This document shows, one piece after another, positions 18,908 through 58,409 of a stretch of 64,000 bases of DNA. A program made the position numbers and the translations under genes. The DNA comes from Bacillota bacterium (GTDB lineage Bacteria; Bacillota; Ch66; Ch109). The number at the start of each line of letters is the position of its first letter. Positions within the stretch are counted from its first letter, which is position 1. The notes beneath the pieces were generated by a model that was not told the origin of the DNA, searched no databases, and was given only the letters and a program-made list of their open reading frames with translations. The stretch covers positions 81,056 to 145,055 of the forward strand of contig JBMNLH010000001.1 of the NCBI GenBank assembly GCA_050952625.1, in the 5' to 3' direction.

Positions 18908-19205
18908 TCACGCTTTAGTAACCTCAGTTTCCTTAATTAGCCACCCACGTTCCAAGGACACAACTATCTATGAAAATAGCGGACATATGTCATCCTGAGC
19001 GTTAGCGAGGGTCTTCCTTCTCAGCGTGACAGGATTCTTGTTTCACCAGAATAACACGATATTAAAACTATTTATCAAAACCATTTTCTTTTTAAAACCA
19101 CTTAACCTGGAGGCATACAATATATCTCCGGGTTTTTTGTTTACGAATCGAAGAAAATCTTTATAATTATTGTTGTTTAAAGTCGCGAATAAGGGGGACA
19201 GAGGA

Positions 19206-32427: not shown

Positions 32428-33529
32428 TTACAGAACCCTGGTCGTTGCCTGCCGGCTGTACCACCGGCCCAGCCTTTGCAATGCTTCCAGCTGCTCCCGT
32501 TGGCCGGCTTTGGTCCGTTTAAGGGCTTTTTGCAAAATGCGGGCAGAGTGTTCCATGTCCTCACGGTTTACTGGGTACGGGTGGCCGTCTTTCCCGCCGT
32601 GGGCAAAGGAGTAGCGCGCCGGGTCCCGGTAGCTGGGCTGAATCCCATAGGTCAGCTCTGCAACTAAGGCTAAAGCCCGCAGGGTACCGGCCCCGATCCC
32701 GGCAATGCCTAACAGGGCTTCAAAACTGCGGGGTCGTTGGTCGTGAGCAATGGACAAGGCCTTGTTTAAATAGGTCGAAGAGGGAATGGAGTGCCGGGCG
32801 GGCAGCGTCAGACTGGGAACTGTTTTCTTGAACAACTCCAATTCCCGGATCACACTGGCCGGGGGATAGGACACCAAATCAGTCGCGATCTGCCGGATAT
32901 CTTTGTTTTCTCCGGCGACCAGGTTTAAGGTCCGGGCAGTCGCATCACAGCAGATAGCTGAGTGCGGCTCGCACACAAAATCCTCCACCCCTCGGCTGAG
33001 CCAGTGGTAACGCCGGGCCTGCCGGTTATCCTCATTCATCCCTTGTTGAATTACGGTCCAATCGCCGCCCGGAGTAAAGACAAAAAAGTGATGATAGATT
33101 TGGTAGCCGTCCTGGACCGCTGAGCTGTCTACCTTAGCTGCCATGCGGCTGGCATACTGAAAATCCGCCACCTGGTTAGCGAAGCTAAACCGGTCACCTC
33201 AGCCGGGCAATCTCGTTTGGCGTGTTACGAGATACTCGGCCTTTGCCGCCGGCCAGGAAGATCCCCAGGTCAGCCTGCGCCTCTTTCAAACCTTCCTTAA
33301 GGGCCCCGCACACTGTCGTCGTTACTCCTGACGAATGCCAGTCAAAACCCAGCACACAGCCCAGGCTTTGAAACCAGTAAGGATCGGCTAGCCGTTTCAG
33401 AACCTCAAACGGACCGTACTCTTCTACGATAACCTCAATAATAGCTGCTCCCAAAGTCTTCATTTTAGTGAATAGCCAAGCCGGACATTTTCCGCCATGC
33501 AGCGGCAGGTTGGCAATCCCGGTTCGCAT
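32428..33529 (-). pseudogene. DUF763 family protein split by a frameshift between 33172 and 33200
   Basis: The N-terminal part (33194..33529; GIANLPLHGGKCPAWLF...WFQSLGCVLGFDWHSSGVTTTV) and the C-terminal part (32428..33171) are collinear but in different frames across a 22-nt gap. The family assignment is from memory. Confidence 0.5.
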
Positions 33530-33807: not shown

Positions 33808-35280
33808 GTGAGAACAAAGACAAAACGGTCTTCAAGGCGAGGTATCCTATGGCGAGTCAGGATGGAGGTACAGGAAAGAAGATACCGAATCTGGCGGTGG
33901 ATTTTTCAGCAGCCAGACCACAGTACATCATATAAATGTTTAGCTGAACATTTTAAAGTCTCCGAGAAAACGGCGAAACTAGATTGTCTTGAACTGGTTA
34001 AAGAAGGCTATTTAAAACGTCATTGGGGCGGGGTAACCTTGACAGAAAAGGGACTTAAGGCCCTGTCCCAGGCAGGGTCGCTGGGACTTGATAGCACTAT
34101 AAAACGAAAACATCTACGCCAGTTAGTGATCTTACGGGTTTTAGCCAGGAGACGAGCTAGCCGAAAGAAAAGTGAACGCACCCTAACCCTAAAAGACATT
34201 TCGCGGTTAGCTGGGTGGGACATAGATTGCCCTGAAGAAAAAGCTTATCCCAGTTTAGATAGTTTGAGTAATGATCTGGCCGAGTTAACCTCAATTGGTC
34301 TGGTTGAACGAACCGAACAGGGCTGGCAGTTGGGCAGCAGTTTAATGCCGCCGCTTTATTTGAACGATGACCAAATGCTTCAGCTGCACCATTACTTAAA
34401 TACTTTGCCGGCGTTTCTGCCGCTGGATGCGGTCCAGATGACCAGAATTAAGGATAAATTGCAAACAATCTTGCTGACAAAAGAAAATATGCTCCCAATT
34501 GATCAACTTAAACTGGCGACTAGGGAAGTGGTCCATGGTTATTCTTCACCACCACCGGCTGATGCTAACATTGTCCGATTGGTCGAGGAAGCTGTCGCCA
34601 AAGGGTTGGTCCTGGAACTGCTCTATCAAGGCAGAAAGATCAAGATTAACCCAATCGGTTTAGTCTATCATTGGCGGCGGGGGTTCTGGTATATCATCTC
34701 CACCCCCAAAAAGCGGCAGCGAACCAACTTACAGATACTACGCCTGGATCGGGTGACTACCGCCTATAAAACTGAACAACAATTTACTCGTTTGCCGGCG
34801 CATAAAAGCAGGATATCGAACTTCCTGGCGGAATACTGGGGCGTTAGCAATGATCGAAGGTTCGAGGTGGAGATTCGTTTTTTTAATACCAAATGGAATG
34901 TTAACGCAGTCGAAAATATGTTGGGTGAAATTGCCCAACGGCAGTACTGGGCCAAAACCTGCCGGACCGTACCGCAGCCCGATGGCTCGGTTGTCTTAAA
35001 GGATACCATTACTGGGCTGTCTGAGTTTACAGCCTGGTTAAGAACCTACGGCGATGCAATCGAGATAATCTCCCCGGCTTGGCTGCGGGAAACACAAAAA
35101 GAAACCGCCCAAAAAATGCTAGCTGTCTATAAGAAGAAGACCGGCCAAATAAATAATCAGGCGGAAAAGCTATTTGACCAAGACATGATCAATAAAGCTG
35201 ATAGGCCTGAGCCAAGAGATACGACTGAGCAGAGGGGAGCCGAACAGAGAGACCGGAGCCGAGCAGAGAGATGGAGGTGA
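33808..35280 (+). CDS. WYL-domain transcriptional regulator (HTH-WYL-WCX), first of a tandem pair
   Basis: N-terminal DeoR-like HTH (YKCLAEHFKVSEKTAKLDCLELVKEGYL), a WYL core (GLVYHWRRGFWYIIS...LQILRLDRVTTA), and a C-terminal WCX-like extension. The true start may be the ATG at 33862. Confidence 0.7.
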   Translation: MRTKTKRSSRRGILWRVRMEVQERRYRIWRWIFQQPDHSTSYKCLAEHFKVSEKTAKLDCLELVKEGYLKRHWGGVTLTEKGLKALSQAGSLGLDSTIKRKHLRQLVILRVLARRRASRKKSERTLTLKDISRLAGWDIDCPEEKAYPSLDSLSNDLAELTSIGLVERTEQGWQLGSSLMPPLYLNDDQMLQLHHYLNTLPAFLPLDAVQMTRIKDKLQTILLTKENMLPIDQLKLATREVVHGYSSPPPADANIVRLVEEAVAKGLVLELLYQGRKIKINPIGLVYHWRRGFWYIISTPKKRQRTNLQILRLDRVTTAYKTEQQFTRLPAHKSRISNFLAEYWGVSNDRRFEVEIRFFNTKWNVNAVENMLGEIAQRQYWAKTCRTVPQPDGSVVLKDTITGLSEFTAWLRTYGDAIEIISPAWLRETQKETAQKMLAVYKKKTGQINNQAEKLFDQDMINKADRPEPRDTTEQRGAEQRDRSRAERWR

Positions 35281-35307: not shown

Positions 35308-36456
35308 TTGGCGAGACAGACAGATAAGGCACTAACCAGGTTGATTAGTTTGATCAAGATTCTCGAAAAACATCCAAAAGGCTTATCCGCTAATCAATTG
35401 GCCGACTTAACCGGATACCCGGCAGCGGTGATCCTGGATGACCTAAACTGGATCGTGCTGCAATCGGAATTTGCCGCGCACTACACTCTGTACGTTGATG
35501 ATTTCCCGGAAGAAGAATTAGACATAGAGACAGGAAGCGAAGCTTTACCTGAAGCCTTACATATTGAAACAGACAGTATCAAGGCAATCAATAACAGTGT
35601 AAAACATAGTGAGCTAATACAAGCTGAGACAGATAATAGCGACGAAGCAGATTATTCAGTGACTGACCCGGATCTTAAGTGGCTGCTTGTGCAAAGGCAG
35701 ACCTATACCCCCGGTTTAAATCTGTCTCTTGAGGAAGCGGTCCCTCTGTTATGGGCTTTAATGGAACACCCTCCAGGCCAAGAGCTGGCCTTATTCCAAA
35801 AAGAACTCAGGCGGCGAATTTTACCAGATCATATGGCTGAGCCAGCGGAAAACTGGATTCAGTTTATGGGAACCAAAGCGGGGATGGAAACACCCGACTG
35901 CCGTTACCTTGACCAATTGCGGGCGGCAATCTACCGGGAGCAGCTAATAGAGGTTAGATATTATGCTAAACAGTACCGGCAAACCAAACGGGCCCGCCTG
36001 CAACCGCTGGGGCTGGTGCTCTATAACGTAACCGGCACCTGGTACCTGGTCGCCCGAGAATACCCCGGGAAAGATATGACGGCCCGGGAAATAATCTTGC
36101 ATCTGGGGAGGCTTGAATCACTTCGGGTATTAGATCAAACGGCTAGCTACCCGGCTGATTTTTCGCTAACCGATTTTCTTAGAACTAGATGGGGAATGGA
36201 TATGTCAGATCCAGTCAAGGTCAAGGCCAGAATCTATCCGCAGGCCAATGTTCTGGAGAAGATCAACCGGGAAATGATAAAGCGCGGCCTGCCGGCCCCT
36301 GCGGAACAGGCTGACGGAACCTATCTATGGGAAGGCGAAGTGCGGGGAATTAATAATTTTACCCGGTGGATTCTTGGCTTTGGCTCAGCCGTTGAAATCT
36401 TAGCCCCGGCCAAGGTCCGGCGCGAAGTTATTTCGATAATCCGCAATATATGTTAA
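35308..36456 (+). CDS. WYL-domain transcriptional regulator (HTH-WYL-WCX), second of the pair
   Basis: HTH (GLSANQLADLTGYPAAVILDDLNWI), a WYL core (LQPLGLVLYNVTGTWYLVAREYPGKDMTAREIILHLGRLESLRVLD), and a WCX C-terminus (TRWILGFGSAVEILAPAKVRREV). Confidence 0.7.
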   Translation: MARQTDKALTRLISLIKILEKHPKGLSANQLADLTGYPAAVILDDLNWIVLQSEFAAHYTLYVDDFPEEELDIETGSEALPEALHIETDSIKAINNSVKHSELIQAETDNSDEADYSVTDPDLKWLLVQRQTYTPGLNLSLEEAVPLLWALMEHPPGQELALFQKELRRRILPDHMAEPAENWIQFMGTKAGMETPDCRYLDQLRAAIYREQLIEVRYYAKQYRQTKRARLQPLGLVLYNVTGTWYLVAREYPGKDMTAREIILHLGRLESLRVLDQTASYPADFSLTDFLRTRWGMDMSDPVKVKARIYPQANVLEKINREMIKRGLPAPAEQADGTYLWEGEVRGINNFTRWILGFGSAVEILAPAKVRREVISIIRNIC

Positions 36457-37047: not shown

Positions 37048-39462
37048 ATGTTAACCGTTAACCGTCAGGAGGTGAGAAAAATAGATTGGTTGTCTGACAA
37101 TAATGAAACTAATTTTAAAAACCTATTATACGGGGCCCTTTTTCATGATATCGGCAAGTTTTATCAGCGCACCCGTGATAAACAGGCGGAGAAGGAGATT
37201 TTCCAGGCTTATCAATGGTATGTAGAGAGCCTGGGTCGGGAATACCTCTCCCACGAACAATGGAGTGCCTACTTCATCCGCACTGTTTTAAAAATGGAAG
37301 CAGCCGCAACCCTGGCTTTAAAGCACCACCACCCGGAAACTGACCTGGAATACCTGATCGCAATTGCCGACAAGTTGTCCGCAATGGAACGGGATGAAGA
37401 AGGCCCGGCCAGTAACGGTAAAGCCAATGTGGCAGCGGAACCCCTGTGTTCTGTTTTATCTTCTATCCGGCACATTAGAGATGATAGCGAGCCGGCCATT
37501 AGTTTTAAACGCTTGAAATTCGAACCCTTGGTTGATCCTTACCCGGTTTCCGATAAAAATGCAGCCCTTAGCCCGGGGGACTATCAGGCCTGGTGGGAGT
37601 GTTTCGCAACGGAAACCAAGGAGACTGTGAAGCAGCCGGTCGGTGCTGGCAAACAGTTTCACCGTCTATATCAGTTGCTTTACCAGTACACCCAGACAGT
37701 GCCTTCAGCCGCCTATTATTCCAAACCAACTATCTCCTTGTTTGACCATTCCCGGACCACTGCAGCGATAGCCACGGCCCTTTACCGGCAGGGGCTTAGC
37801 CAGAATGACCTGGAAAGGTTGCACCGTCTTTTGGTGTATGGAGGCAAGAAGCGGGGAGCGGAAGAGCCGGTCCTGCTCTTGGTTGGCGGCGATATTTCGG
37901 GCATTCAGGACTTTGTGTTTGATGTGTCAGCCAAAGGAGCAGCCAAAGGCCTGCGGGGCCGGTCCTATTATCTGGCCACTCTTGGCGAGGCGATTGCTCA
38001 GTTTATCTTGACTCACGAGGGTCTTACCCCCTGTAACATTTTATATTCCGGGGGCGGCCATTTCTATTTGATTCTGCCGGTTCGGGCCATGTCACGCTTA
38101 GCCGATTACCAAAAACAGATCGACCAGATCCTGTTTGCGGCCCATCAAGGGAAGTTGTCGGTCATTCTAACCGGGATTCCCTTGACCCAGACTGATTTTT
38201 ACCCGGAGAATTTCGGCGAAAAGTGGCAGCAGATCGGTCTAGCAGCCCAAAAAGCCAAGCAGCAGAAATTCCTCGAATTGATCCGGCAAAACCCGGAACA
38301 AGTGCTGGGTCCGAGTTATGAAGGCCAGCAGGTTTGCGTCATTTGCGGCAGTTCAATGCCAGTGGGAGAAGAAAAATGCTCTTTCTGCGAAAGCTTTGAA
38401 CAGCTAGGCGATAACCTGGCGCGGGAGCGGACGTATCTTTTGGAGTACTACTTTAAGCCCCGTCCGGTAGACCAGATGTCCACAGTGGAAGATGTCTGGG
38501 CTGGTCTGGGATATCGGCTGGAGTTTTCCAACAAACCAGATGCCCAGGCCATTGTTTCGGTAATCAATCAACCAGCCTTGGCCGATAAAGCAGTTGATCG
38601 TGTGGTTTGGCTGGCGAATACTGCTCCGCATAACCCGGATGGCAGTCTGCTGACTTTTGAGGAGATCGCGGCGCAAAGTACCGGGGATCACATGTGGGGA
38701 GTCCTGCGCGGTGATGTGGATAATCTGGGCAGGGTTTTTCGGGAAGGCCTGGGCCAGGATCGCTCAATTTCCAAGATTGCCGCCCTCAGTCGAGAGATGT
38801 CCTTTTTCTTTAGCTTTATTTTTAATCAGGTCTGTCTGCGGTACCGGCAGTCGGTTTATGTCATTTATGCCGGGGGAGACGATTTCTTTTTGGTAGGTGC
38901 CTGGAGTGATTTGCCAACGATCGCGGCGGAAATCAACCGGGAATTTCACCGATACAGCTCCGGGAACCCTAACCTCACCCTATCTTGTGCGATCAGTATC
39001 GCATCGGGGATGACCTATCCTTTGTTTAAGGTGGCCCATACCGCCGGGGAACAACTGGACGAACAGGCCAAAACCACCCGAATGGTTAAAGGGGTTCTCC
39101 ATCATAAAGATAGTGTATGTTTTCTAGGCCAGCCCTTTACCTGGGGAGAATTGGAGGAAGTCAGACAAGTCAAGAACTTGATCAAAAAAGCAATCCAAAA
39201 TGAAGGGGTGGCTAAATCGCTCATCTTCTTGATTAATACAGCTTACGCTGAGCAGCGGCAATACCAGCAGGGCAGATACCCGATCAATCGAATTTGGCGG
39301 CTGGTCTACGCCCTGACCAGACTGGCTGCGCGACATGGGCAAGCCGCTAACACCCTGAAAGAATTGGAAAGCCGGCTGTTAACCAGCCAGACAATGCTGT
39401 ATGCCAACAGCCTTTACGCGGCCCGCTGGGCCGAAAAAGAATTGAGAACAAGGGGGGACTAA
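37048..39462 (+). CDS. cas10: Type III-A Cas10/Csm1 (HD nuclease plus cyclase/Palm domains)
   Basis: An N-terminal HD motif (LLYGALFHDIGKF) and a GGDD cyclase motif (VIYAGGDDFFLVGAW), at 804 aa, leading the csm2-5 operon. Confidence 0.9.
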   Translation: MLTVNRQEVRKIDWLSDNNETNFKNLLYGALFHDIGKFYQRTRDKQAEKEIFQAYQWYVESLGREYLSHEQWSAYFIRTVLKMEAAATLALKHHHPETDLEYLIAIADKLSAMERDEEGPASNGKANVAAEPLCSVLSSIRHIRDDSEPAISFKRLKFEPLVDPYPVSDKNAALSPGDYQAWWECFATETKETVKQPVGAGKQFHRLYQLLYQYTQTVPSAAYYSKPTISLFDHSRTTAAIATALYRQGLSQNDLERLHRLLVYGGKKRGAEEPVLLLVGGDISGIQDFVFDVSAKGAAKGLRGRSYYLATLGEAIAQFILTHEGLTPCNILYSGGGHFYLILPVRAMSRLADYQKQIDQILFAAHQGKLSVILTGIPLTQTDFYPENFGEKWQQIGLAAQKAKQQKFLELIRQNPEQVLGPSYEGQQVCVICGSSMPVGEEKCSFCESFEQLGDNLARERTYLLEYYFKPRPVDQMSTVEDVWAGLGYRLEFSNKPDAQAIVSVINQPALADKAVDRVVWLANTAPHNPDGSLLTFEEIAAQSTGDHMWGVLRGDVDNLGRVFREGLGQDRSISKIAALSREMSFFFSFIFNQVCLRYRQSVYVIYAGGDDFFLVGAWSDLPTIAAEINREFHRYSSGNPNLTLSCAISIASGMTYPLFKVAHTAGEQLDEQAKTTRMVKGVLHHKDSVCFLGQPFTWGELEEVRQVKNLIKKAIQNEGVAKSLIFLINTAYAEQRQYQQGRYPINRIWRLVYALTRLAARHGQAANTLKELESRLLTSQTMLYANSLYAARWAEKELRTRGD

Positions 39463-39463
39463 G

Positions 39464-39925
39464 GTGGGCATGAATCGACCACCCATTCCGGGGGGACCCG
39501 GGGGCAGACCAAGAAATACAAGCGGAGGTCGAAGTAACCTTGACAATTCCGCGGTCCGGGATGCCCTGCAAAACGTCAGGCAACTGCTGGATAAAGACCA
39601 GGACCCGTACGGAGAGTTATTAATCCAAACAGCCGAGGCAATGGGCCGGCACCTAGCCAATAACCGGATGACCACGGCCCAGATCCGGAAACTCTTCTCC
39701 GAAGTGCGGAAACTTAATTTTAAAGACGACGGGCCTTACAAGACCAATATGATGCGGGCCAAACTGGCCTATACTGCCGGCCGTCACCGCGAAGTTGGTG
39801 ACCTCCAGCAGGTATTAGACAAAGCCTTAATCGAAGTGGGGACCAGCGAAGAAAAATTTAACCGTTTTGAAAACTTTTTTGAAGCCATTGTGGCCTACCA
39901 TAAGAAATACGGCGGTAAAGATTAA
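39464..39925 (+). CDS. csm2: Csm2 small subunit
   Basis: A ~150 aa helical protein between cas10 and csm3, with a Gly/Pro-rich N-terminus followed by a helical core. Confidence 0.75.
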   Translation: MGMNRPPIPGGPGGRPRNTSGGRSNLDNSAVRDALQNVRQLLDKDQDPYGELLIQTAEAMGRHLANNRMTTAQIRKLFSEVRKLNFKDDGPYKTNMMRAKLAYTAGRHREVGDLQQVLDKALIEVGTSEEKFNRFENFFEAIVAYHKKYGGKD

Positions 39926-39970: not shown

Positions 39971-40804
39971 GTGACTGAACTAATAATGGAAGGCAAATTA
40001 GTCATGACTGGCCTGATTAAGGCCTGCACCGGACTGCATATCGGCGGGTCCCCGACTGGTTTAGATATTGGCGGCGTGGATAAGTCTGTCATTAAGGACC
40101 CAGGAGGTAAGCCCTATATCCCCGGCAGTTCGCTCAAGGGGAAAATGCGCAGTCTGCTGGAAAAAAGTGAAGGACTGGTTACTTCGTCCAGCCTGGTAGT
40201 TACTAAAAAAGGCGGGATCCACGACACCATTCGGATGCACATGTGCAATTCGCCAACTTGTGCTGTTTGCAATATTTTCGGCCGGACCAACGGGCGAAAA
40301 AAATTAGCTGACGAATCAGATCTAAATATTGAGAACGGGACCCTGCCGCGTTTGATAGTGCGGGATGCGTATCTGGTTGAGGACAGTATCCCGCGGGAGA
40401 TGAAAGAACACTTGGATTTGGAATGGACCGAGGTCAAGTTTGAAAACTCAATTGACCGTATTACATCTGCCGCTAACCCCCGACAGACTGAACGGGTGCC
40501 GCGGGGAGCAGAGTTTAGTTTTCAAATGGTCTATACGGTTTATACTCCGGCAGACCGAGATGACTTCAGCAAGGTGACCAAGGCCTTACGGCTGTTGGAG
40601 GATGACTACCTGGGCGGGGCCGGCAGCCGGGGTTACGGACAAATCCTTTTTCATAACCTGAAGCTATATTGGAATTCAGTCAATGACTATGAAACCGGGA
40701 ATATTAATCTAGCGACCAAAGAGCCCTGGCTAGCGGCGGATACCCTCAGCCAGTTGATGGAACAAATGGTTGAGGCCGGGGGCGTGGCCGGGCTTAAAGA
40801 ATAG
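39971..40804 (+). CDS. csm3: Csm3 (Cas7 backbone RAMP)
   Basis: GLHIGGS...KPYIPGSSLKGKMRSLLE G-loop motif plus the RAMP C-terminus GSRGYGQI. Confidence 0.9.
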   Translation: MTELIMEGKLVMTGLIKACTGLHIGGSPTGLDIGGVDKSVIKDPGGKPYIPGSSLKGKMRSLLEKSEGLVTSSSLVVTKKGGIHDTIRMHMCNSPTCAVCNIFGRTNGRKKLADESDLNIENGTLPRLIVRDAYLVEDSIPREMKEHLDLEWTEVKFENSIDRITSAANPRQTERVPRGAEFSFQMVYTVYTPADRDDFSKVTKALRLLEDDYLGGAGSRGYGQILFHNLKLYWNSVNDYETGNINLATKEPWLAADTLSQLMEQMVEAGGVAGLKE

Positions 40805-40816: not shown

Positions 40817-41809
40817 ATGAAAGCACACATCGTGAAAATGCATTTTACAGCGCCCCTGCACTTAGGCAGCAAGGAAGCAATGCTGGAGAACACCCTGCAG
40901 CATATCCCATCCGATGTTGTTTTTTCCGCGCTGTGCAACGTGTATCGCCACCTCTACGGCAAACAAGCTTTAGAGTCGCTGCTGGCGGAACAAGCACAGT
41001 CGGCCGGCTTCCTATTGTCATCAGCCTTTCCTTATTACCGGGATGCCTATTTTTTGCCCCGGCCTTTAAACTTTGACTTAACCCGCTATGGCTTTGAACC
41101 GAAAAAGGCCAAACGGGTGAAATATCTGGAATATAACCTGATGCACCGGGTGTTGGCGGGTAAGTTTCAAGCCGCGGATTTGGAGAATTATGTCGCTGAG
41201 GCGGTGCAGGGCCTGCTTTTGCCCCGGGAGTATCAGGGTCTGAAAATCTGCCGCGAGGTTGAAATACCGCGGGTCGCCCTGGACAGCCTGACTGCTGCGT
41301 CAAATATCTATTACTTTAACCAGGTGACCTTTACCCGGGAGGCCGGTCTTTACTGTCTGGTCCGGTGTGCGCCGGAATTATGGGGCCGGCTCAGGACCTG
41401 TTTTCGTGTCTTGGGCGATGAAGGAATCGGCGGGGACCGGACTTCCGGCAAGGGAGGATTTACCGTCGAATTTCCAGGCGAACTGGCTTTTCCGCAACTG
41501 GGTCAGCCGGCCAGCCATGTCTTATTGTCCCTGTATTATCCCAGTTCTGATGAGGCGGGAAGCCTGGAGGCTGAGTATTCGTTAATCAAACGTTCTGGTT
41601 ATGTCTACTCTTCAGAGGAAACCGGCCTGAGAAGGAAAAGCGTCACCATGCTGGCCGAAGGGGCAGTAGTCTACGCTGATTCTCCTCCAGTTGGGAAGCT
41701 CGTGGACCTGACACCGCCCGGGTTTGACAAGCACAAAGTCTGGCGCAATGGCCTGGCCTTCACGGTGGCGTCAGCCCTGGGGAAAGGAGGAGGGGAAGAT
41801 GCCGGGTAA
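40817..41809 (+). CDS. csm4: Csm4 (Cas5-group RAMP)
   Basis: 330 aa between csm3 and csm5, with a C-terminal Gly-rich region (GDEGIGGDRTSGKGGF). Confidence 0.8.
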   Translation: MKAHIVKMHFTAPLHLGSKEAMLENTLQHIPSDVVFSALCNVYRHLYGKQALESLLAEQAQSAGFLLSSAFPYYRDAYFLPRPLNFDLTRYGFEPKKAKRVKYLEYNLMHRVLAGKFQAADLENYVAEAVQGLLLPREYQGLKICREVEIPRVALDSLTAASNIYYFNQVTFTREAGLYCLVRCAPELWGRLRTCFRVLGDEGIGGDRTSGKGGFTVEFPGELAFPQLGQPASHVLLSLYYPSSDEAGSLEAEYSLIKRSGYVYSSEETGLRRKSVTMLAEGAVVYADSPPVGKLVDLTPPGFDKHKVWRNGLAFTVASALGKGGGEDAG

Positions 41810-42950
41810 ACTCAAGTATCGCCTGGAGGTCTTGACCCCGGTGCATATTGGCAGCGGGCAAAAACTGCTGCCGGCGGATTATATTCTTGATCCCGAGACG
41901 CAGGAGGTTATTCGGGTCGACCTAAATGCCCTGTTTAGTGACCGCTCTTTTCCGGTCGGACGTTTTATCGCGGCGATTAAAGAGCCTGGCTTTAGTCTGC
42001 AGCGGAAATTTTATCAGTCAGGGCGCATGTATCCCCTGTACCGGCTGGCAGCAGCCGATACGCTAAACGAGCTTAACCAGCACATTGGCCGCCCGGCCGG
42101 GGCCATTCTCGAACACATAAAGGAGGCCGGCCAGCCCTATCTCCCGGGGAGTTCGCTGAAAGGAGCCTTGCGTAGTCTGGTCGTTCGCTGCTTGATTGCG
42201 CAAAACCCTGATTCTTACGAAGAAAGGCTCAGACAAAACATGCAAGGAGACAGGAGAAGCCGAAAGGAGTTTTTCTCCACTTCCGCTGAAGAACGCGTAG
42301 TCGGCAACCCCAATTTTAGTCTATTTAAGTCCCTGCAGGTTAGCGACAGCTCAACGTTAAACCCACAGCAGCTTCAATTGGGCTGTACGCGGGTCCTTTC
42401 CTTAACCCGACGTGGGTTCCGCTGGAAGGACCTGGGTCAGAACACGAACGTGGATCGTCCAGAGATGGCAACGCCGATTTTTTTTGAAGCCATTCCGGCT
42501 GGGACCACCCTAACCGGCACCTTAAAGGTAGATGAGACCTTGCTCAAAGGAGAAATGGCGCAATTGCTCAGGTACCCGCCGGCCAGCAGAACCGCCCTGC
42601 TGGAACTAACGCGGATCTGCCGGGAAGGCAGCCGGGAACTGTTGCGCAATGAAGAGGAGTTTTTCACGAAAATTTCCTTTGCCCCGGGTGTTCAGGCGGT
42701 CAAAGGTATACTGTCGATTGAGCAGGACTGCAACGCTAATCAGATGATTATCCCCTTGGCCTGGGGGACTGGTTATCTGGCCAAAGCGATGGGCTGGAAG
42801 ATTGATCCCGATTTGTTTCGGGAGGTGCGAGACCGATTCAGACTGGGCCGGCCGGGGTTTGAATTTCCAAAATCTCGAAAGATTATTTTCACGCAGGGTA
42901 AACCGTCTGGTTTAATGGGCTGGGTTAAGATCACCCTGGGAGAGGAATAA
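41799..42950 (+). CDS. csm5: Csm5 (Cas7-group RAMP)
   Basis: MPGKLKYRLEVLTPVHIGSG...PYLPGSSLKGALRSLV. The ATG at 41799 is preceded by GGAAAGGAGGAGG; the ORF-track start at 41724 lies inside csm4. Confidence 0.85.
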   Translation: MPGKLKYRLEVLTPVHIGSGQKLLPADYILDPETQEVIRVDLNALFSDRSFPVGRFIAAIKEPGFSLQRKFYQSGRMYPLYRLAAADTLNELNQHIGRPAGAILEHIKEAGQPYLPGSSLKGALRSLVVRCLIAQNPDSYEERLRQNMQGDRRSRKEFFSTSAEERVVGNPNFSLFKSLQVSDSSTLNPQQLQLGCTRVLSLTRRGFRWKDLGQNTNVDRPEMATPIFFEAIPAGTTLTGTLKVDETLLKGEMAQLLRYPPASRTALLELTRICREGSRELLRNEEEFFTKISFAPGVQAVKGILSIEQDCNANQMIIPLAWGTGYLAKAMGWKIDPDLFREVRDRFRLGRPGFEFPKSRKIIFTQGKPSGLMGWVKITLGEE

Positions 42951-42953
42951 CTG

Positions 42954-43882
42954 ATGCTCAAGGTAATTAAAGTTAATATCGAACTCAAACCCGTCGAACC
43001 TATTGAACTGCCAGTTTATAAAGGTTCCACCTTTCGGGGGGATTGGGCCAGGTACTTAAAGAGATGGTCTGTATCCGGCGGGACCGGCAGTGCCGTCGGT
43101 GTTCCATAAGTAATAAATGCAGCTATACCTTCGTCTTTGAAACCGCAACTTATTATGCCGGGCAGCCTCGGGATTCCGGGGGTGTGCCGCAGCCGTTTGT
43201 CTTGGAACCACCTCTGGAGGAAGAAACCAGATACGAAGTTGGCCAAACAATCAATTTCAGTTTAGTTTTGATGGGGCGGGGGGTAGATTATCTGCCCTAC
43301 TTCCTGTCCGCCTTTGATTTTATGGGGGAGCGGGGAATCGGACGCCGGCGGGGTCGGTTTGAGTTGTTCCGCGTGACTGACAGCTATTCGGGAGAGGTAG
43401 TCTACGACCGGGAAAGCGGTGAGGTTAACTCGCTGTTGACCCCCCGAAACCTTTCAGACCTGCTTCTGAAAAGCGAGGCGTGCCAAAGCTGTTGCCTGAC
43501 TCTGCTCACCCCGCTTCGTTTAAAACAAGGGGGCAGCCTGACCGAACAATTCAACTTTGAATTACTCATTCGAGCTATTCTAAGGAGAATAACCTATCTC
43601 AACCAGTATTTCGGTGATCAAGAGATAGAACTGGATTATAAACAGCTTATCGATCAGGCCAAAGAGATCAAAACCAGGGCCAGAAATATAGCCTGGCGGG
43701 ACTGGGAAAGGTATTCAAGCCGGCAGGATACCCGGATGAAACTGGGCGGAATAGTTGGCGACATAGAGTTCGCCGGAGAAATTACCCCTTTTTGGCCTTT
43801 TCTGTTAATGGGGCAGGAAATCCACATTGGCAAGAATACTACCTTTGGCCTGGGAAAATATTTAGTGGAACGATCAGGCTGA
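42954..43882 (+). CDS. cas6: Cas6 (crRNA endoribonuclease) of the III-A module, with a frameshift in a G6 run at 43035-43040
   Basis: Frame 0 from the ATG at 42954 gives MLKVIKVNIELKPVEPIELPVYKGSTFRG, then hits a stop. The track ORF (43043..43882) continues ...GQVLKEMVCIRRDRQCRRC... and carries the Cas6 G-rich loop GEITPFWPFLLMGQEIHIGKNTTFGLGKY. Inserting one G yields GSTFRGGLGQVL. Confidence 0.8.
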
Positions 43883-44343: not shown

Positions 44344-46179
44344 GTGAGAATGATTGACCCGCTCAGAGGGGATTGCGACGATGTACTTCTCGAAATTATC
44401 ATCGGCTCGCTTGTGCCAGTGGTGAGAATGATTGACCCGCTCAGAGGGGATTGCGACGGCATTAACCTCCTCCTCCTCCTCTTCTAATTCAGTTAATCTG
44501 TGAGAATGATTGACCCGCTCAGAGGGGATTGCGACCTGTCCCCGTAAATACGAGGACTTCTCTCAGATACCTGAGGTGAGAATGATTGACCCGCTCAGAG
44601 GGGATTGCGACAATTCCTCCTTGTTTTTTTTCGGTTGGTTTAGAGATTTCGTGAGAATGATTGACCCGCTCAGAGGGGATTGCGACTGTCACCTTTGTCA
44701 GCGTCCCCGCCATCATTGCCGGAGCCGCGTGAGAATGATTGACCCGCTCAGAGGGGATTGCGACACCAGATGCGGCCAGCATGGATCCACCGCTTGCTAA
44801 AACGTGAGAATGATTGACCCGCTCAGAGGGGATTGCGACTTTTCCTGTAATTCTGGCAATGATAAGATGTATCCAACTGTGAGAATCATTGACCCGATCA
44901 GAGGGGATTGCGACAAATAGCAATTAGAATTATTACCATGAAATTTCGGATCTGGGTGAGAATCATTGACCCGATCAGAGGGGATTGCGACTTACTAGAA
45001 TAAACACTTCTCCGCGCGATTTTTTTCCTGGTGAGAATCATTGACCCGATCAGAGGGGATTGCGACACTGGAGAGGAAGAAATAATGCTCATAATGGCAT
45101 TGACTTGTGAGAATCATTGACCCGATCAGAGGGGATTGCGACCCACTGCCGACCGGCAGCAAGCAGATTTTCATCCCCGTGAGAATCATTGACCCGATCA
45201 GAGGGGATTGCGACAAGGATTAAAGAATATAGCTCCTACAACTTTGTTGTGTGTGAGAATCATTGACCCGATCAGAGGGGATTGCGACGATATTTTTACG
45301 ATTAGTCCTATCCCCTGCAGCATCGGTGAGAATCATTGACCCGATCAGAGGGGATTGCGACGACTGCCCGCCGACCGCACTCGATGGCCGAAACCATTTT
45401 GTGAGAATCATTGACCCGATCAGAGGGGATTGCGACTTCTCCTTCTTTTTTGGTTTCGTTTCGTTTTCGACGGCTGGGTGAGAATCATTGACCCGATCAG
45501 AGGGGATTGCGACCAAAAGCAAGCTTACGACGGGATATGTTTTAGCTAGTGTGAGAATCATTGACCCGATCAGAGGGGATTGCGACAACTGAAGGTTTAC
45601 GTTTTTCTTGTTATCCCAGCTAATTGTGAGAATCATTGACCCGATCAGAGGGGATTGCGACCTATTGTTGCAGCACCACCACAACGCTCACAAATAAAAA
45701 GTGAGAATCATTGACCCGATCAGAGGGGATTGCGACCTAATGCCATAACTTCTCAACTCATCAATTGATTTCGGTGAGAATCATTGACCCGATCAGAGGG
45801 GATTGCGACATATTTTTCCTCCCATGGCTGGAACGGGTCAGAACGGTGTGAGAATCATTGACCCGATCAGAGGGGATTGCGACACACAAACTCTGGAACC
45901 CTCTCCCCGTCCTGCCTCTTTGCGTGAGAATCATTGACCCGATCAGAGGGGATTGCGACCTTGAAACTCATCGCACATCGCTCACTTTCTCTTATTTGTG
46001 AGAATCATTGACCCGATCAGAGGGGATTGCGACTTTTAGAGCAGGTCGCTTAGCAGGATTTTTCTCCTTTTTTGTGAGAATCATTGACCCGATCAGAGGG
46101 GATTGCGACACTCACTGTTCCCTTTTTATGCCCCATGATGATATCCCAAGGGGAGAATCATTGACCAGATTCGCCGAAT
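44344..46179 (+). CRISPR. CRISPR array 1: 25 repeats of 36 bp plus one degenerate terminal repeat; spacers 36-42 bp
   Basis: Repeats 1-7 read gtgagaatgattgacccgctcagaggggattgcgac; repeats 8-25 read gtgagaatcattgacccgatcagaggggattgcgac; a degenerate copy lies at 46150. First repeat starts include 44344, 44422, 44500, 44576 and 44651. The leader is at the cas6 side, so the array is transcribed on the + strand. Confidence 0.95.
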
Positions 46180-46279
46180 TATTTACTTTACCCAAAACAA
46201 CTAGGTGGGTTAGATGGCAAGCTAATTCAGGTTAATGGCAGCCTCAGTTATTGGGGCTTTTTTTATTGCCCCCTATCTG

Positions 46280-46312: not shown

Positions 46313-46368
46313 TATTAGGGTGATCGGTTAACTTGTCATTGCAACTTCTATCAAGGAGGTTAAAAGAA

Positions 46369-47229
46369 ATGGGTTTTCTAAAGGATTTAGGCAGTCTCAC
46401 CGGCAGCATTGCAGGGGTGGTTTTGTCTACTCCAGTGACTTTGGCTGGTGGTTTTTTTGATAGTGATACCTTAAAGGAGGCGGCTCGCGGGATACACTAT
46501 GTTACCGCCAGTACTGGTTCCTTAATCGGTCAAACCGTCAGTGGCGGTCTGGATGTGGTGGAAGGAGTTTTAACTAGGAATGACAGGATAAGTCAGCAGG
46601 GTCTTGATGAGGTTGGTGATTCTTTTAAAACTGTTATCAATGGGGTAATTGGTGGTACCGCTAGTCTCTTGGATAATAGTGGTAAAGTAATTACTGGGGT
46701 ATTTGAGGGTGATACGGCCACCGCAATGCAAGGAGCTAAAAATCTTGCTAAATTTGGCATAATTACGGCCATCGGAATTGGGCTGGCTGATGCGATTGGG
46801 ATTGTTGATGTAAATGGGAATGAGACGGTAGCCCACGCTCAAGTACCTAGTAGTTTTAGTTATGATCAAGATGATGCTGTTTTGGATTATTCAGATATTG
46901 GTGAACCGCATGGGCTAGTACCGGACGTTCCGGTTGATGACATTCCTGGAGTTGATAATGGTATGGCTCATCCATCCGCTACGGAGGTATTAATTGATCT
47001 GGGTTGCCAGGATGGAACGGAGCATGTCGTGGATCCGCCCCGGGATCCGGGGATGGTCCAGGCATTTTTAACGGAGCATGGATATACTGAGACTCCTGAT
47101 GGTTACGAGGTCCATCACATTATTCCTCTGTCCGAAGGTGGAGCCGACCATCCGGCTAACATGGTATTAGTTTTGGAAGAAGAACATGATCAGATTACGG
47201 CGGCCCACCAGAGGTTTTATCAATGGTAA
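46369..47229 (+). CDS. Hypothetical protein with a Gly-zipper-rich N-terminal region and a C-terminal HNH-type nuclease motif
   Basis: The ATG at 46369 follows an AAGGAGG RBS. The C-terminus EVHHIIPLSEGGADHPANMVLVLEEEHDQITAAH fits the HNH HH-N-H pattern. The N-terminus has GxxxG-like runs (ITAIGIGLADAIGI). Confidence 0.5.
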   Translation: MGFLKDLGSLTGSIAGVVLSTPVTLAGGFFDSDTLKEAARGIHYVTASTGSLIGQTVSGGLDVVEGVLTRNDRISQQGLDEVGDSFKTVINGVIGGTASLLDNSGKVITGVFEGDTATAMQGAKNLAKFGIITAIGIGLADAIGIVDVNGNETVAHAQVPSSFSYDQDDAVLDYSDIGEPHGLVPDVPVDDIPGVDNGMAHPSATEVLIDLGCQDGTEHVVDPPRDPGMVQAFLTEHGYTETPDGYEVHHIIPLSEGGADHPANMVLVLEEEHDQITAAHQRFYQW

Positions 47230-47438: not shown

Positions 47439-49151
47439 ATGATAATGGAGAAAAAACCGTGGAAGCTAATTACCTTTATCGGGATGGGTTATTATCAGCC
47501 GACGAATTATAAGATTAAAGGAGTAGAATATCCTGACACCAAATATTTTCCCTTAGCTGCGGCTAAATGGTTGATTGAGCAAAGGGGAGATCAAGGAAAA
47601 ATTGTAGTACTGGTCACTAAAGAAGTTATTGAAGATACAAAAAACCAGAATTTACAGGGATTTAAGGAAGCCTTATTACTTGACCCACAATTTAAACATC
47701 TAAATGTGCAGCAAGAAATATTTCCTTGGAAAGAAGAAAGCGAGCTCTGGGAAATATTTAAGATAATCGTTAATTCGGTAGAGAATGGCGAAACCGTATA
47801 TTTTGATATTACTCATTCCTTTAGATTTATCCCGTCCATCGTTTTGTTGGCTTTGATTTATTTAAAAGAGGTTAAAAGGATAGACCTTCAGTCGGTGTTC
47901 TACGGAAACTTTGAGGCAACGAAATCAGGCTTTGACTATGCACCCGTATTTGATATTCTCCCTTTTGTCGATCTCGCGGAATGGCTGTTTGGGGCGCGAG
48001 TATTTAAAGAATTTGGGTTAGGCAGTATTTTAGGTGACAAAATTAAGACGGTGCAGGCTGAAATACGGAGAAAAAGCAAAGAAGGGCCGGAGAAGTTAAT
48101 TAAGCTGGGGACCCGCTTGAATAATCTTTCAAGTGCTTTAGCTGTGGGTAATGCCATAGGTGTGGGTGAAAACGCCCTGAAATTGACTAATTTTATAAAT
48201 CAAAATAAAGATAAAATAGAAACGGAAGTAAGGGAGTATGTCCCGCCATTGGTGCCGTTAATAGAGGGTATTGTGGATGAATATGCTCAATTTGGGCTTG
48301 AGGATATTCAGTTAAATATGAAGGAATTAGAGAGAGAAGAAAGTTTAATTCGCTGGTATCTAGAAAAAAAAGATATCGGAAAAGCCCTGCAACTGTTTAG
48401 GGAATTTATAGTAAATACTGTTTTATATATTAATGCTGGGTCGACTCGTGAGTGGCTAAAACTGGATAATAGATTGCCCGTAGAACGGCAATTACATAAT
48501 TTAAAGGTCGCTAATACAGAGGTTGGTCGCCTCTGGGATGAAATTGCATTCGAAAGAAATTCAATTGCCCATTGTGGTTTTAATAATCAAGACAAATTTA
48601 ATCCGAATAAAGAGTATCGAAATTTACAGTTGGTTACCAGGCCTGACCATAATCTTGAGGAATGGATTTCTAGAATTGCTTCAGAGGTACAAGCTTTAGC
48701 CTTCGATGAAGGATCGGTCCTGCTAACACCATTGGGGCTGTCGAAAGGGTTATTATTTACCTTATGGCAGAGATATCCTGATATTGAGCGGACCATAATT
48801 CTCACATCGGCAGAGACGGTCAACAGTATCGAAGAAGTGAAAAAGATAACCGGATACTCAGGGGAGATCAAGATCTGCCTAGTTCAAGATCCATTTACTG
48901 CTTTTGACCAGATTGAAAATAAGTGGAAGGAAATAAAAGATTTTCTTAAAAGTAATATTATTGTTAATATCACTGGCGGTACCACAGCACTTCAATATTT
49001 GGTGGAAAAAATACAACAAAGGCTTATTAACCAGGATGTGAGAATAACTACGGTTGCGGCTATTGATCGAAGGCCCGTGCAGGAACAAAAAGAAAACCCA
49101 TGGGTAGCCGGACAGATAATTAAATTAAAGGAAGACCATCAGGAAGATTAG
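47439..49151 (+). CDS. csx1: Csx1-family CARF-HEPN ribonuclease with an additional C-terminal Rossmann/CARF-like domain
   Basis: N-terminal CARF with the DxTH motif (VYFDITHSFRFIPS), a HEPN Rx4H motif (FERNSIAHCGF), and then ~190 more aa with VLLTPLGLSKGLLFT...TIILTSAE...VNITGGTTALQYL, which looks like a second CARF-type fold. Confidence 0.75.
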   Translation: MIMEKKPWKLITFIGMGYYQPTNYKIKGVEYPDTKYFPLAAAKWLIEQRGDQGKIVVLVTKEVIEDTKNQNLQGFKEALLLDPQFKHLNVQQEIFPWKEESELWEIFKIIVNSVENGETVYFDITHSFRFIPSIVLLALIYLKEVKRIDLQSVFYGNFEATKSGFDYAPVFDILPFVDLAEWLFGARVFKEFGLGSILGDKIKTVQAEIRRKSKEGPEKLIKLGTRLNNLSSALAVGNAIGVGENALKLTNFINQNKDKIETEVREYVPPLVPLIEGIVDEYAQFGLEDIQLNMKELEREESLIRWYLEKKDIGKALQLFREFIVNTVLYINAGSTREWLKLDNRLPVERQLHNLKVANTEVGRLWDEIAFERNSIAHCGFNNQDKFNPNKEYRNLQLVTRPDHNLEEWISRIASEVQALAFDEGSVLLTPLGLSKGLLFTLWQRYPDIERTIILTSAETVNSIEEVKKITGYSGEIKICLVQDPFTAFDQIENKWKEIKDFLKSNIIVNITGGTTALQYLVEKIQQRLINQDVRITTVAAIDRRPVQEQKENPWVAGQIIKLKEDHQED

Positions 49152-49205: not shown

Positions 49206-50492
49206 ATGAGGTGGAATGTGGCTAGAGTTCTCATTTCAGGCATAGGTACTGGCCAGCTTAATGGTCAGGATGATTATGGGCTTGAACACCGAAGAAAATA
49301 CCGAACAGCAACTTATCTTATTGATCAGAAAAAATATGAAACAGAGTTTATAGCCAGTGCATTAATAGAACATTACCAAATTGAAAAGGTGTTTCTTGTT
49401 GGTACCGTAAAATCAATGTGGGAAAATGTATATGAGTATTTTGCTGGTGCTAACCTGGATGAAGAATATTATTTCCATTTGGTTGAAGCAATTGAAAAAT
49501 CAAATTATTTAGATCAATGCTTTGACATGGACTATCTTGGCAACGTGAACGAAGCAATGAACTGTTTTCTTAAGTCGAGTGACTCACGTTGTTTTTTAAT
49601 TAAGTACGGCTTGAATGAAGAGGAAATTATCTATAATTTCGGGATATTTCAGGATATCGCGGAGTTGTTGGAAAGTGGAGACGAGGTGTTTCTGGACATA
49701 ACTCATTCTTTTCGGTCATTGGCTCTATTTCAATACACAATGGTCAATTACATAGACAATTTGTCACACAAAAACATTGAGGTTAAGGGCGTGTTTTACG
49801 GCATGCTCGAAACTGCTCGGGAGATGCAGGGCATTACACCGGTGGTTAATCTTAAAACAGTGTATGAATTAAGCAATTGGGTAAAAGCCATTCATGAGTT
49901 AAAGAGTTACGGAAATGGTTATATAGTATCGGATTTATTAAGAGATTATGATAAACGACTAGCTAACAAGATCAAAATGTTTTCGGACCTGGTTAATTTA
50001 AACTACCTGGCTGGGGTAAAAAACCAAGTGGACAATCTGTCGAGATTAAACTTTGAACACATAAATGGGCCGGGCAGTATGGTGGCAGAGTATCTAAATC
50101 GTTATGTTAACCGGTTCGCGTCAATCAGAAATGAGTGGGAGTTCCAGTTTGAAATGGCAAAGTGGTATTTTGAAAATAAACGGTATGCTACGGGTTATAT
50201 TGCTTTGATAGAATCGATATTAACTCGAATTTGCGAATTGTTAGCTTTAGATCCTAAAATTAAAAACAATAGAGATGAAGCGAAAAATATTCTCTATAAT
50301 AACCGATCAGGTGCTAATTTGAGAGAGGTCAGGTATAAGTTCGATGCGATTAATAGAATCCGTAAGAATGTGGCGCATGTCCTTGATGATCGGGACGAAA
50401 GGAATTATTTGACGGATGTGCGGCAGTCAGCTTATTACATCCGGAGTTTAGAAGGATTATTAAAGCGTCTGTCGGCTGATGATTTAAGGTGA
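49206..50492 (+). CDS. csx1: Csx1-family CARF-HEPN ribonuclease (paralog 2)
   Basis: CARF with VFLDITHSFRSLALF and a HEPN Rx4H motif (INRIRKNVAHVLD), at 428 aa. The start may instead be the GTG at 49221. Confidence 0.75.
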   Translation: MRWNVARVLISGIGTGQLNGQDDYGLEHRRKYRTATYLIDQKKYETEFIASALIEHYQIEKVFLVGTVKSMWENVYEYFAGANLDEEYYFHLVEAIEKSNYLDQCFDMDYLGNVNEAMNCFLKSSDSRCFLIKYGLNEEEIIYNFGIFQDIAELLESGDEVFLDITHSFRSLALFQYTMVNYIDNLSHKNIEVKGVFYGMLETAREMQGITPVVNLKTVYELSNWVKAIHELKSYGNGYIVSDLLRDYDKRLANKIKMFSDLVNLNYLAGVKNQVDNLSRLNFEHINGPGSMVAEYLNRYVNRFASIRNEWEFQFEMAKWYFENKRYATGYIALIESILTRICELLALDPKIKNNRDEAKNILYNNRSGANLREVRYKFDAINRIRKNVAHVLDDRDERNYLTDVRQSAYYIRSLEGLLKRLSADDLR

Positions 50493-56211: not shown

Positions 56212-57438
56212 GTGTACTATCATCCCAAAGATACGCAAGACATCTTTGAAAAGAAAATTAGTAATTTGAACGAGAGCGTAGATAATTTATGGTACCGAGT
56301 GCATTATTTTCAACAGAACTCGTTGCATGATAAAAGTCAAAATAGATTGGTTAAACTGCCGAAGAATTTGCGTTTAAATCGGCCCACCCAGTCGTTTCTT
56401 AACCAGCGATTGCAGCAACGGGCCCAGTTGTTAAGCCATCTGCAGGCCAGTTGTGAGTTGGCCGGGCTGAAGGGATTTTTACAAGGAAGACTAATCCACG
56501 GACTGGGCGGGGCGCATGTCCGGGAAACCTCGCTGACGCTGCATCCCCTCTACGGTCTGCCTTATATCCCGGGTTCGAGTCTGAAGGGAGCGGTCCGCAA
56601 CTGGGTTTTACAGGCTTTTTTTCAGGGTGACGAAGATTCCTTGAAGAAGGAAACTCATTTAGATCAAACGAAGGCTGAAATACGGACAATCTTTTTTGAC
56701 TTGTTTGGAAGCGAGGAACAAGCCGGATTGGTTGAGTTTTTTGATGCCTTTGTTGAGTCTGATTTTTCTCTGCAACCGGATATTTTGACTGTTCATTTTC
56801 CTAAGTATTACAGTGGCGAGAAATCGCCGACCGATGATCAGAATCCCAATCCGGTCGATTTCTATACCATAAATTGTTCTTATCTACAGTTTTTCTTGGC
56901 GGTTAAGAAGGGGCGATCAACCCGGTCCAGCTTAAATAGTGCTCAATTGATGGAATTAGCCGTAGCTTGGACGCAAAAAGCTTTGAGCGAGTTGGGGATT
57001 GGCTCCAAGACTTCAGCGGGCTATGGCTATTTTTCCAAGTTTGAGCAAATTAAGGTTAATAACCTTCGCTCAATTACTGCTGTCAATCAGTCTAGTCGAA
57101 AAAACACTGACAACAAGTCAGCGGATAGTTCAGTAAAAGGCCCGGCCCCGGCCAAGGACAAAAATAGTCCGGTTGGTCAAGTGGAAAGTCAACCAATGGA
57201 TCTAGGACCCGGGCTAATATTGGTCCGGCTAATTAACCAGTTGGCTGAGAAAAGTGAGCAGGACCGCAACCGCAGCAAGGGAGAAGTCTACCAACAGGTA
57301 CTGGCTTTGGCTGAGCAAGGGGAACTGGAACCAGCCCGATCGCTTAAAGCGTATTGGGAAAGGTCCGGTGATTGGAAAAAACCGAATAAAAAGCAGCAGC
57401 AGAAGATAGATGCGATAAGAAAGATATTAGGAGAATAA
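56212..57438 (+). CDS. cmr6: Cmr6 (Cas7-group RAMP)
   Basis: GLPYIPGSSLKGAVRNW G-loop and a C-terminal GIGSKTSAGYGYF. Confidence 0.8.
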   Translation: MYYHPKDTQDIFEKKISNLNESVDNLWYRVHYFQQNSLHDKSQNRLVKLPKNLRLNRPTQSFLNQRLQQRAQLLSHLQASCELAGLKGFLQGRLIHGLGGAHVRETSLTLHPLYGLPYIPGSSLKGAVRNWVLQAFFQGDEDSLKKETHLDQTKAEIRTIFFDLFGSEEQAGLVEFFDAFVESDFSLQPDILTVHFPKYYSGEKSPTDDQNPNPVDFYTINCSYLQFFLAVKKGRSTRSSLNSAQLMELAVAWTQKALSELGIGSKTSAGYGYFSKFEQIKVNNLRSITAVNQSSRKNTDNKSADSSVKGPAPAKDKNSPVGQVESQPMDLGPGLILVRLINQLAEKSEQDRNRSKGEVYQQVLALAEQGELEPARSLKAYWERSGDWKKPNKKQQQKIDAIRKILGE

Positions 57439-58409
57439 TGATAACAACAAAGCCTTATTCTATTACCTATTCCCGTTTTCGCTTCACCCTTCGGGCAGAA
57501 GAAGATGCTCGCTTACCGGCTTATTTGGGCTCAACCTTGAGGGGAGCTATGGGCCGGGCTTTCAGGCGAGGGAGTTGTCTAAGTTTGCGCAGCCACTGTT
57601 CAGACTGTATGTTCTCCTCACGCTGCGCCTACGCCTATATTTTTGAAACCTCACAGGCTTCAACGATAAACAAAGGAGCCGGGGTTGAGCATTTTTATAT
57701 TCCTCACCCCTTTGTTATCGAGCCGCCCCTGGACGGAAAGACCATTTTCAAAGCAGGAGAGGAACTGACATTCGATCTGCTGCTGATCGGCAGCGGATTA
57801 CACTTTTTCCCTTTTTTCATTGCCGCCTTTGCCCAGGCAGCGGCGGAGGGTCTGGGGGCAGGACGTCATCGTTTCCGCTTGGAAAACGTGGCCCAATGGT
57901 TGGATGATGAGTTGGTTTTACTTTGGAATGGGGGTAATAGGCTGCTTGGAAATCCAGTCGCTCAGGTCTTAACCAATGATCTTGAGGCTGGAATTGACTG
58001 TAGGGAAATTACCCTGCACCTGCAAACCCCGCTGCGGATAAAAGAACGCGGTCACCTGGTGAATGAAATAAGCTTTCCTTTGTTAATCCGCAGTATTTTT
58101 CGCCGCCTGGATTTATTGGGTCGCGTTCATGGCGATGGTCCGCTAATTCTGCCGTATACCGATTATCTTCAACAGGCGGCGGCAGTTAGTGCGGTGCCAG
58201 AAGCTAATTCATTATACTGGACAGAATGGCGGCGTTATTCCAATCGCCAAAAGGTTCACATGAATATGGGAGGATACTGTGGCAGTATCCGGTATCAGGG
58301 TGATCTCGGCCCTTTTCTTCCTTACCTTAAAATGGCAGCCGTCCTGCACCTGGGCAAAGGAACAGTGTATGGCCTGGGCAAAATCGCCATTGAGGTTACC
58401 GAGAGGTGA
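57438..58409 (+). CDS. cas6: Cas6 (second copy, associated with the Cmr module)
   Basis: GSTLRGAMGRAF, a Cys cluster CLSLRSHCSDCMFSSRC, and the G-rich loop GGYCGSIRYQGDLGPFLPYLKMAAVLHLGKGTVYGLGKI. It is paralogous to the Cas6 at 42954. Confidence 0.8.
   Translation: MITTKPYSITYSRFRFTLRAEEDARLPAYLGSTLRGAMGRAFRRGSCLSLRSHCSDCMFSSRCAYAYIFETSQASTINKGAGVEHFYIPHPFVIEPPLDGKTIFKAGEELTFDLLLIGSGLHFFPFFIAAFAQAAAEGLGAGRHRFRLENVAQWLDDELVLLWNGGNRLLGNPVAQVLTNDLEAGIDCREITLHLQTPLRIKERGHLVNEISFPLLIRSIFRRLDLLGRVHGDGPLILPYTDYLQQAAAVSAVPEANSLYWTEWRRYSNRQKVHMNMGGYCGSIRYQGDLGPFLPYLKMAAVLHLGKGTVYGLGKIAIEVTER

Follow-up and report, generated by a model that had tools for sequence, protein, structure and literature searches.

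The cas6 gene of the type III-A (Csm) module in the window, the 64,000-nt stretch of DNA analysed here, is split into two reading frames at a run of six G, and the split very probably arose as an indel error of the assembly consensus on the MAG contig; by comparison with other assemblies, the strain would in reality carry seven G and an intact 309-aa cas6. This reading is drawn from the recovery of the exact repaired gene in an independent assembly, the absence of the split from every relative, the presence of other indels found only in the window, and the nature of four of these as merges of two alleles. The coordinates of the features are listed in Table 1.

In the deposited sequence, direct reading and translation showed that the ATG at 42954 opens MLKVIKVNIELKPVEPIELPVYKGSTFRG, followed by unrelated residues and a stop at 43107-43109; the ORF listing gives a 51-aa piece (42954..43109) starting from this ATG. 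The frame of 42953/42956, one base behind the ATG frame, reads GGLGQVLKEMVC... and stays open until the stop codon 43880-43882. In this second frame, the longest ORF (43043..43882) encodes 279 aa from a TTG start, and the deposited MAG annotation accordingly contains a 279-aa Cas6 starting at TTG 43043 (MGI6647589.1). When one G was added at the G6 run, a 309-aa Cas6 was obtained in a single frame. The sequence-only reading of this DNA had described a III-A cas6 split by one base in the G6 run, with the Gly-rich loop encoded in the second frame, and both points were confirmed by reading, translation, and the csm context, the loop being located within 43042..43882. Its claim that one additional G restores a normal Cas6 junction was borne out as well, the product being 100% identical to a protein from another assembly (P0125). 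The G run itself had been placed one base too early, at 43035-43040; base 43035 is a C, and the run occupies 43036-43041.

Table 1. Coordinates of the cas6 lesion, the CRISPR loci, and the other window-only indels (positions are those of the window).
Feature	Position	Strand	Details
Window-only insertion, merge of two alleles	5398-5402 (insertion 5399)	+	window ACAGTCAG from ACATCAG and ACAGTAG
Extra base at MFS start, alters the start	5583..5587 (insertion 5586)	+	window GATTGACAATG is a merge of GATTGCAATG and GATGACAATG
2-base insertion (CG) splitting the MFS gene	5885..5886	+	window GTTCGTATCAGC merges GTTTATCAGC (allele A) with GTTCGTAAGC (allele B)
Extra G in the PHP/HisJ-family phosphatase gene (17528..~18300)	18216..18219	+	G4 vs. 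G3 in relatives (two)
Window-only insertion, merge of two alleles	23395-23398 (insertion 23397)		window AACCTTGAG from AACTTGAG and AACCTGAG
Extra base (CC vs. C) in the DUF763 gene (33529..32428)	33197..33198	-	one-base deletion restores the 366-aa protein of the relatives
cas10/csm1	37048..39462	+	NCBIfam equivalog TIGR02578, 633 bits
csm2	39464..39925	+	TIGR01870, 63 bits
csm3	39971..40804	+	TIGR02582, 219 bits
csm4	40817..41809	+	TIGR01903, 257 bits
csm5	~41802..42950	+	TIGR01899, 99.5 bits; start inferred from 382-aa calls in relatives
cas6 codons 1-29 (MLKV...STFRG)	42954..43041	+	frame of ATG 42954; 29/29 identical to P0125
G6 run, junction of both cas6 frames	43036..43041	+	G7 in L011; GGGGAGG in ten relatives
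cas6 remainder, residues 31-309 of the repaired protein	43042..43882	+	Cys cluster C40/C47/C50/C56; Gly-rich loop GKNTTFGLGK
CRISPR array 1	44344..46109	+	24 repeats of 36 nt
Second cas6 (323 aa)	57438..58409	+	PF10040; closes the Cmr (III-B) module; 36% identity with the repaired first cas6
CRISPR array 2	61036..62446	+	20 repeats, same family as in array 1, from whose repeat they differ by 1-2 mismatches

The genes csm1 to csm5 are intact, all score above their NCBIfam cut-offs, and lie next to cas6 and an array, as in a type III-A system. Array 1 begins 462 bases downstream of cas6; two positions distinguish its first 7 repeats (GTGAGAATGATTGACCCGCTCAG..., 44344-44839) from the remaining 17 (GTGAGAATCATTGACCCGATCAG..., 44879-46109). 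Array 2 contains a third repeat variant (…GATTAG…) and three degenerate terminal repeats. The Cmr module that ends with the second cas6 is complete. Three ORFs on the forward strand between the second cas6 and array 2, the usual place of adaptation or accessory genes (58591..58926, 59014..59703, and 59663..60634), had no Pfam match, and the first two had no NCBIfam match either. Between the Csm and Cmr modules, two tandem CARF-type proteins of the TIGR02221 family with a DxTHG motif are encoded (47439..49151 and 49206..50492, forward strand), which are presumably cyclic-oligoadenylate-responsive accessory proteins. On the JGI contig Ga0534105_01207 (L002, 12088-16674), the sister locus carries a 964-aa RT/AEP-TOTE fusion, Cas1, and Cas2 as an adaptation module, placed between array 1 and the CARF genes. 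The corresponding part of the window (45062-47418) is without this module and contains instead more repeats and a 298-aa ORF (46333..47229) with a weak HNH match; neither cas1 nor cas2 was recognised within the 64-kb window.

The repaired 309-aa protein was evaluated as a Cas6 by family profile, conservation, and structure prediction. Its residues 182-303 matched Pfam PF10040 (CRISPR_Cas6) with 66.8 bits against a cut-off of 25, and its database relatives are precomputed as PF27225 + PF10040. The score for the NCBIfam equivalog TIGR01877 was 27.1 bits, below the cut-off of 58.65; by these profile scores, the protein is a member of a divergent Cas6 subfamily, for which NCBI uses the name 'CRISPR system precrRNA processing endoribonuclease RAMP protein Cas6'. 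The N-terminal 29 residues are identical to those of P0125 at every position and to those of P0001, the 309-aa match described below, at 26 of 29. In a 51-sequence family alignment, P20, G24, R28, and G29 before the shift are invariant, as are G32, which directly follows it, C40, C50, and C56; residues G293, K294, G299, and G301 of the C-terminal loop GKNTTFGLGK are likewise invariant in the 51 sequences. The paralogous Cas6 of the same window can be aligned across the junction (LPVYKGSTFRGGLGQ vs. LPAYLGSTLRGAMGR). From the identity to P0125 and P0001, the invariant columns, and the PF10040 score of the repaired protein, it follows that the N-terminal piece is genuinely coding rather than similar by coincidence.

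In the AlphaFold2 model of the repaired Cas6 (pLDDT 92.9, pTM 0.91), residues 3-13 form strand beta1 and residues 24-39 helix alpha1, which places the frameshift within alpha1. A phmmer search of the repaired protein against PDB sequences gave no match, and fold comparison was used instead. The top PDB matches of the model found by Foldseek were all Cas6 proteins (6DD5, 7KFT, 4C9D, and 4ILL, with E-values from 1e-15 to 1e-11, and also 3ZFV and 6FJW), and the two ferredoxin-like (RRM) domains of Cas6 were recovered by the model and the Foldseek comparison. The nearest solved structures are the Cas6 domain of the Marinomonas mediterranea Cas6-RT-Cas1 protein (6DD5) and Thermus thermophilus TTHB231 (4C9D). 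The C-terminal Gly-rich loop and the place of the gene between csm5 and the array are those of PF10040 Cas6 proteins with an AF_1859-like N-terminal domain (PF27225). In contrast to the solved Cas6 proteins, with which it shares only ~15% sequence identity, the repaired protein has a conserved cluster of four Cys (C40, C47, C50, and C56; window ~43071-43121) just past helix alpha1. These four residues are invariant or nearly so in the 51 family members and may form an insertion that binds metal and is peculiar to this subfamily of Cas6.

The repaired Cas6 was used as a query in a protein search, in which the key matches were P0002 and P0001. The former is the 279-aa form, found only in NCBI ("MAG: ... 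Cas6 [Bacillota bacterium]"), and is the MAG protein MGI6647589.1, encoded on a contig of 1,733,502 bp; in the collection of ~15 billion proteins, this form is recorded once, from one contig. The latter has 309 aa and is 96% identical to the repaired Cas6. All six sequences of the P0001 cluster are 309 aa long, and one of them is P0125, the protein 100% identical to the repaired one. P0125 is encoded on a 1,582-bp contig (L011) of the Logan assembly of run SRR31128974, which matches window positions 42791-44371 at 1,581 of 1,582 positions, the sole difference being GGGGGGG in this contig vs. GGGGGG in the window. The lesion is therefore absent from an independent assembly of the same allele. 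In ten further contigs, which come from other runs and from JGI metagenomes, a sister allele of about 93-95% DNA identity is present, with GGGGAGG at this place and an intact 309-aa gene. Seven bases between identical flanks were thus present in all 11 independent contigs (10 GGGGAGG and 1 GGGGGGG), and only the window has six. The comparison with orthologous cas6 genes, which had been proposed as a check together with the first description of the split, hence found it conserved in 0 of 11 contigs. Since the sister allele reads GGGGAGG, the G7 tract was made in this lineage by a synonymous GGA-to-GGG change.

The dN/dS ratio between the repaired cas6 and the sister allele was 0.17, indicating that cas6 has been under purifying selection. 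No other decay was seen in cas6 or the Csm operon, as judged by dN/dS and the NCBIfam scores of the operon genes. A scan of the metagenome_contigs and genome_contigs collections with an exact pattern (flanks + N{5,8}), which works on the fetched loci, gave no match, from which it follows that these collections do not hold the samples in question. Exact-sequence look-up of the 279-aa MAG protein and of the window Csm4 found no contig on record, and a literature search on the run, sample, and protein accessions found no paper.

Indels found only in the window were also detected outside cas6. As a reference for the error rate, the 117-kb contig Ga0534105_01207 was used, which is 99.9% identical to window positions 1-31326, with only ~10 substitutions per 17 kb. 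Besides the cas6 lesion, at least six window-only indels were found; of the seven in total, six are insertions, and the one in cas6 is a deletion. Such indels break cas6 and three other genes, i.e., 4 of ~50-55, and all four are intact in every independent relative. The frameshifting indels of the MFS, PHP, and DUF763 genes are unique to the window and out of proportion to the substitutions, and four frameshifted genes in 64 kb at ~0.1% divergence do not correspond to the pattern of a natural population.

The MFS transporter gene is present as two pieces, 5508..5900 (MFS_1 profile positions 1-73) and 5903..6919 (positions 83-318), which the MAG annotation lists as MGI6647553.1 and MGI6647554.1; the relatives are single genes encoding 442-444 aa. 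The sequence-only reading had noted this gene as broken at the G run 5894-5896. The break itself was confirmed, but comparison with eight intact relatives placed it at the 2-base insertion 5885-5886 rather than at the GGG. In the PHP/HisJ phosphatase gene, the last 27 codons are shifted, giving 246 aa in the MAG (MGI6647564.1) vs. 256 aa in the relatives, and removal of one G at 18216-18219 restored the 256-aa protein. The DUF763 gene is divided into 33194..33529 (111 aa, profile positions 1-106) and 32428..33171 (247 aa, profile positions 117-319). Two observations on truncated relatives were made in other public assemblies: a Cas6 homologue from an NCBI MAG (P0006, 280 aa) is without the first ~38 residues, and on a 1,478-bp ENA contig (P0150 + P0151) the same MFS gene is split elsewhere, near GTGGGCGGGG. 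These truncations suggest similar artefacts in those assemblies.

The insertions at 5399, 5586, 5885-5886, and 23397 are each the exact merge of two alleles found in independent assemblies. Considering the alleles compared, these four merges are a mixed-strain consensus artefact and not a pattern of biological mutation. The PHP insertion at 18216 was also considered as a merge of two alleles, and no clean merge was obtained; it adjoins a T/C (Trp/Arg) difference between the alleles. The run SRR31128974, source of the G7 contig, also contains one of the MFS alleles (L028), which would fit with this run sampling the same community as the MAG. Among runs of at least 5 bases in window positions 1-31326, 200 of 200 had the same length as in the 99.9% identical relative, including a G7 run (21377-21383) and, among the A/T runs, one of 9 bases and sixteen of 7; within the region covered by L011, that contig has the same lengths for the G6 run at 43278 and for the C6 run at 43440. 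The general tendency to homopolymer error hinted at earlier was thus not found, and there is no general collapse of homopolymers in the assembly.

Several other candidates for broken genes were rejected. ORF pairs that a 1-base homopolymer change would fuse were looked for in a crude scan, which returned mostly ordinary gene junctions and was dropped in favour of comparison with relatives. The ORFs 19170..20066 and 19952..21487 encode distinct proteins, one NfnA-like and the other NfnB-like. At 33808..35280 and 35308..36456, two separate HTH-WYL-WCX regulators are encoded and not one broken gene; these tandem forward-strand genes lie just upstream of cas10, with an in-frame TGA inside a low-complexity repeat. 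The region is called differently in relatives (776 + 122 aa in L002 and at least 920 aa in L018), and its gene boundaries are uncertain. The window also contains a full-length bacterial RNase P RNA of class A (7481-7839, reverse strand, 318.5 bits).

According to the preferred explanation, the true strain sequence would be TTT CGG GGG GGA TTG (G7), with cas6 intact in the type III-A module. The contig, with a length of 1.73 Mb in a MAG, would be a long-read one without effective short-read polishing. A consensus caller working on mixed-strain reads could have modelled adjacent substitutions as insertions, thereby producing merged alleles, and the missing G of cas6 might have the same origin as these merges or be an under-call of the 7-base G run. 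The lean of the sequence-only reading towards sequencing error over inactivation is supported by the G7 of L011, the 0 of 11 relatives with a split, and the other window-only indels. Long-read consensus indels commonly frameshift MAG gene calls, especially in low-coverage bins without short-read polishing (PMC9262707). As in the long-read MAG errors described by Sereika et al. 2022 (PMC9262707), a conserved gene is interrupted where the length of a G run is off by one base, several genes are shorter than their closest relatives (IDEEL logic), and the 1.73-Mb contig is very long for a MAG. Unlike in those errors, no general homopolymer collapse occurs here, and the changes are mostly insertions at sites where two co-occurring strains differ rather than at homopolymers. 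Against the explanation by error, it should be considered that the errors are sporadic and mostly insertions and that the homopolymers are otherwise correct, while the cas6 lesion is a deletion. The lack of general homopolymer collapse and the deletion in cas6 leave a small probability to a real slip from G7 to G6.

Such a slip is unlikely, though the best placed of the alternatives. It would have arisen by slipped-strand mispairing at the lineage-specific G7, leaving a recent pseudogene that has become fixed or a subpopulation that varies in phase, and the second Cas6 would cut the pre-crRNA of both arrays. The G7 tract, new in the lineage where the relatives have GGGGAGG, is a plausible slippage site, and homopolymers elsewhere in the window, including another G7, are called correctly. 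The two lengths could also be two real variants of one strain, as SRR31128974 is a separate assembly and possibly from another sample than the MAG. The loss would be functional: the 279-aa product is without strand beta1, the start of helix alpha1, and four invariant residues, and to judge from the model, the lesion, if real, would probably inactivate Cas6. Buffering of such a loss would be provided by the paralogous cas6 (36% identity, same Pfam family) and the near-identical repeats of the arrays. The second cas6 at 57438, named earlier as a possible substitute, does exist; its taking over of crRNA processing would, from the sequence comparison, be plausible but is probably not needed. Set against a genuine G6 are the G7 of L011, the only other record of this allele, and the absence of the truncated form from every other assembly among ~15 billion proteins. 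Moreover, at least six further window-only indels lie on this contig, of which four are demonstrably consensus merges, the four frameshifted genes in 64 kb at ~0.1% divergence are unlike natural populations, and no secondary decay is seen in cas6 or the operon.

It is very improbable that the lineage-specific G7 is a real on/off switch, in which the G6 part of the population silences the Csm-linked Cas6. Slippage in poly-G tracts switches phase-variable contingency genes in Neisseria, Haemophilus, and Campylobacter. As in those genes, the G7/G6 difference lies within the coding region and toggles the frame; in contrast to them, the cas6 tract is short and not conserved in relatives, and the single G6 record belongs to an assembly in which further indel artefacts are proven. 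The records available are ten relatives with GGGGAGG and one G6 and one G7 record from different assemblies, which is not the variation of a phase-variable locus. Were the switch real, the Cmr-linked paralogue would mature crRNA for both type III modules, and cas6 would be a phase-variable CRISPR processing gene.

Production of a full-length Cas6 (...FRGGLGQ...) from the G6 sequence, whether through transcriptional slippage or through a ribosome slipping -1 on C GGG GGG A, can practically be set aside: a tRNA-Gly slip from GGG 43038-43040 to GGG 43037-43039 followed by GGA would give exactly the repaired protein, but the zero-frame codons CGG GGG GAT do not amount to a canonical heptamer (X XXY YYZ), the sister allele has an interrupted tract (GGGGAGG), and the shift is absent in relatives, 11 of 11 related contigs being single-frame.

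Under the preferred explanation of a consensus error, the main value of the result concerns the annotation quality of the deposited MAG. Most indel errors in the contig are allele merges at adjacent strain substitutions, which homopolymer-aware checks miss and comparison with close relatives catches. The truncated Cas6 (MGI6647589.1), the MFS transporter pieces (MGI6647553.1 and MGI6647554.1), and the phosphatase (MGI6647564.1) should not be taken as pseudogenes or as signs of a decaying CRISPR system.
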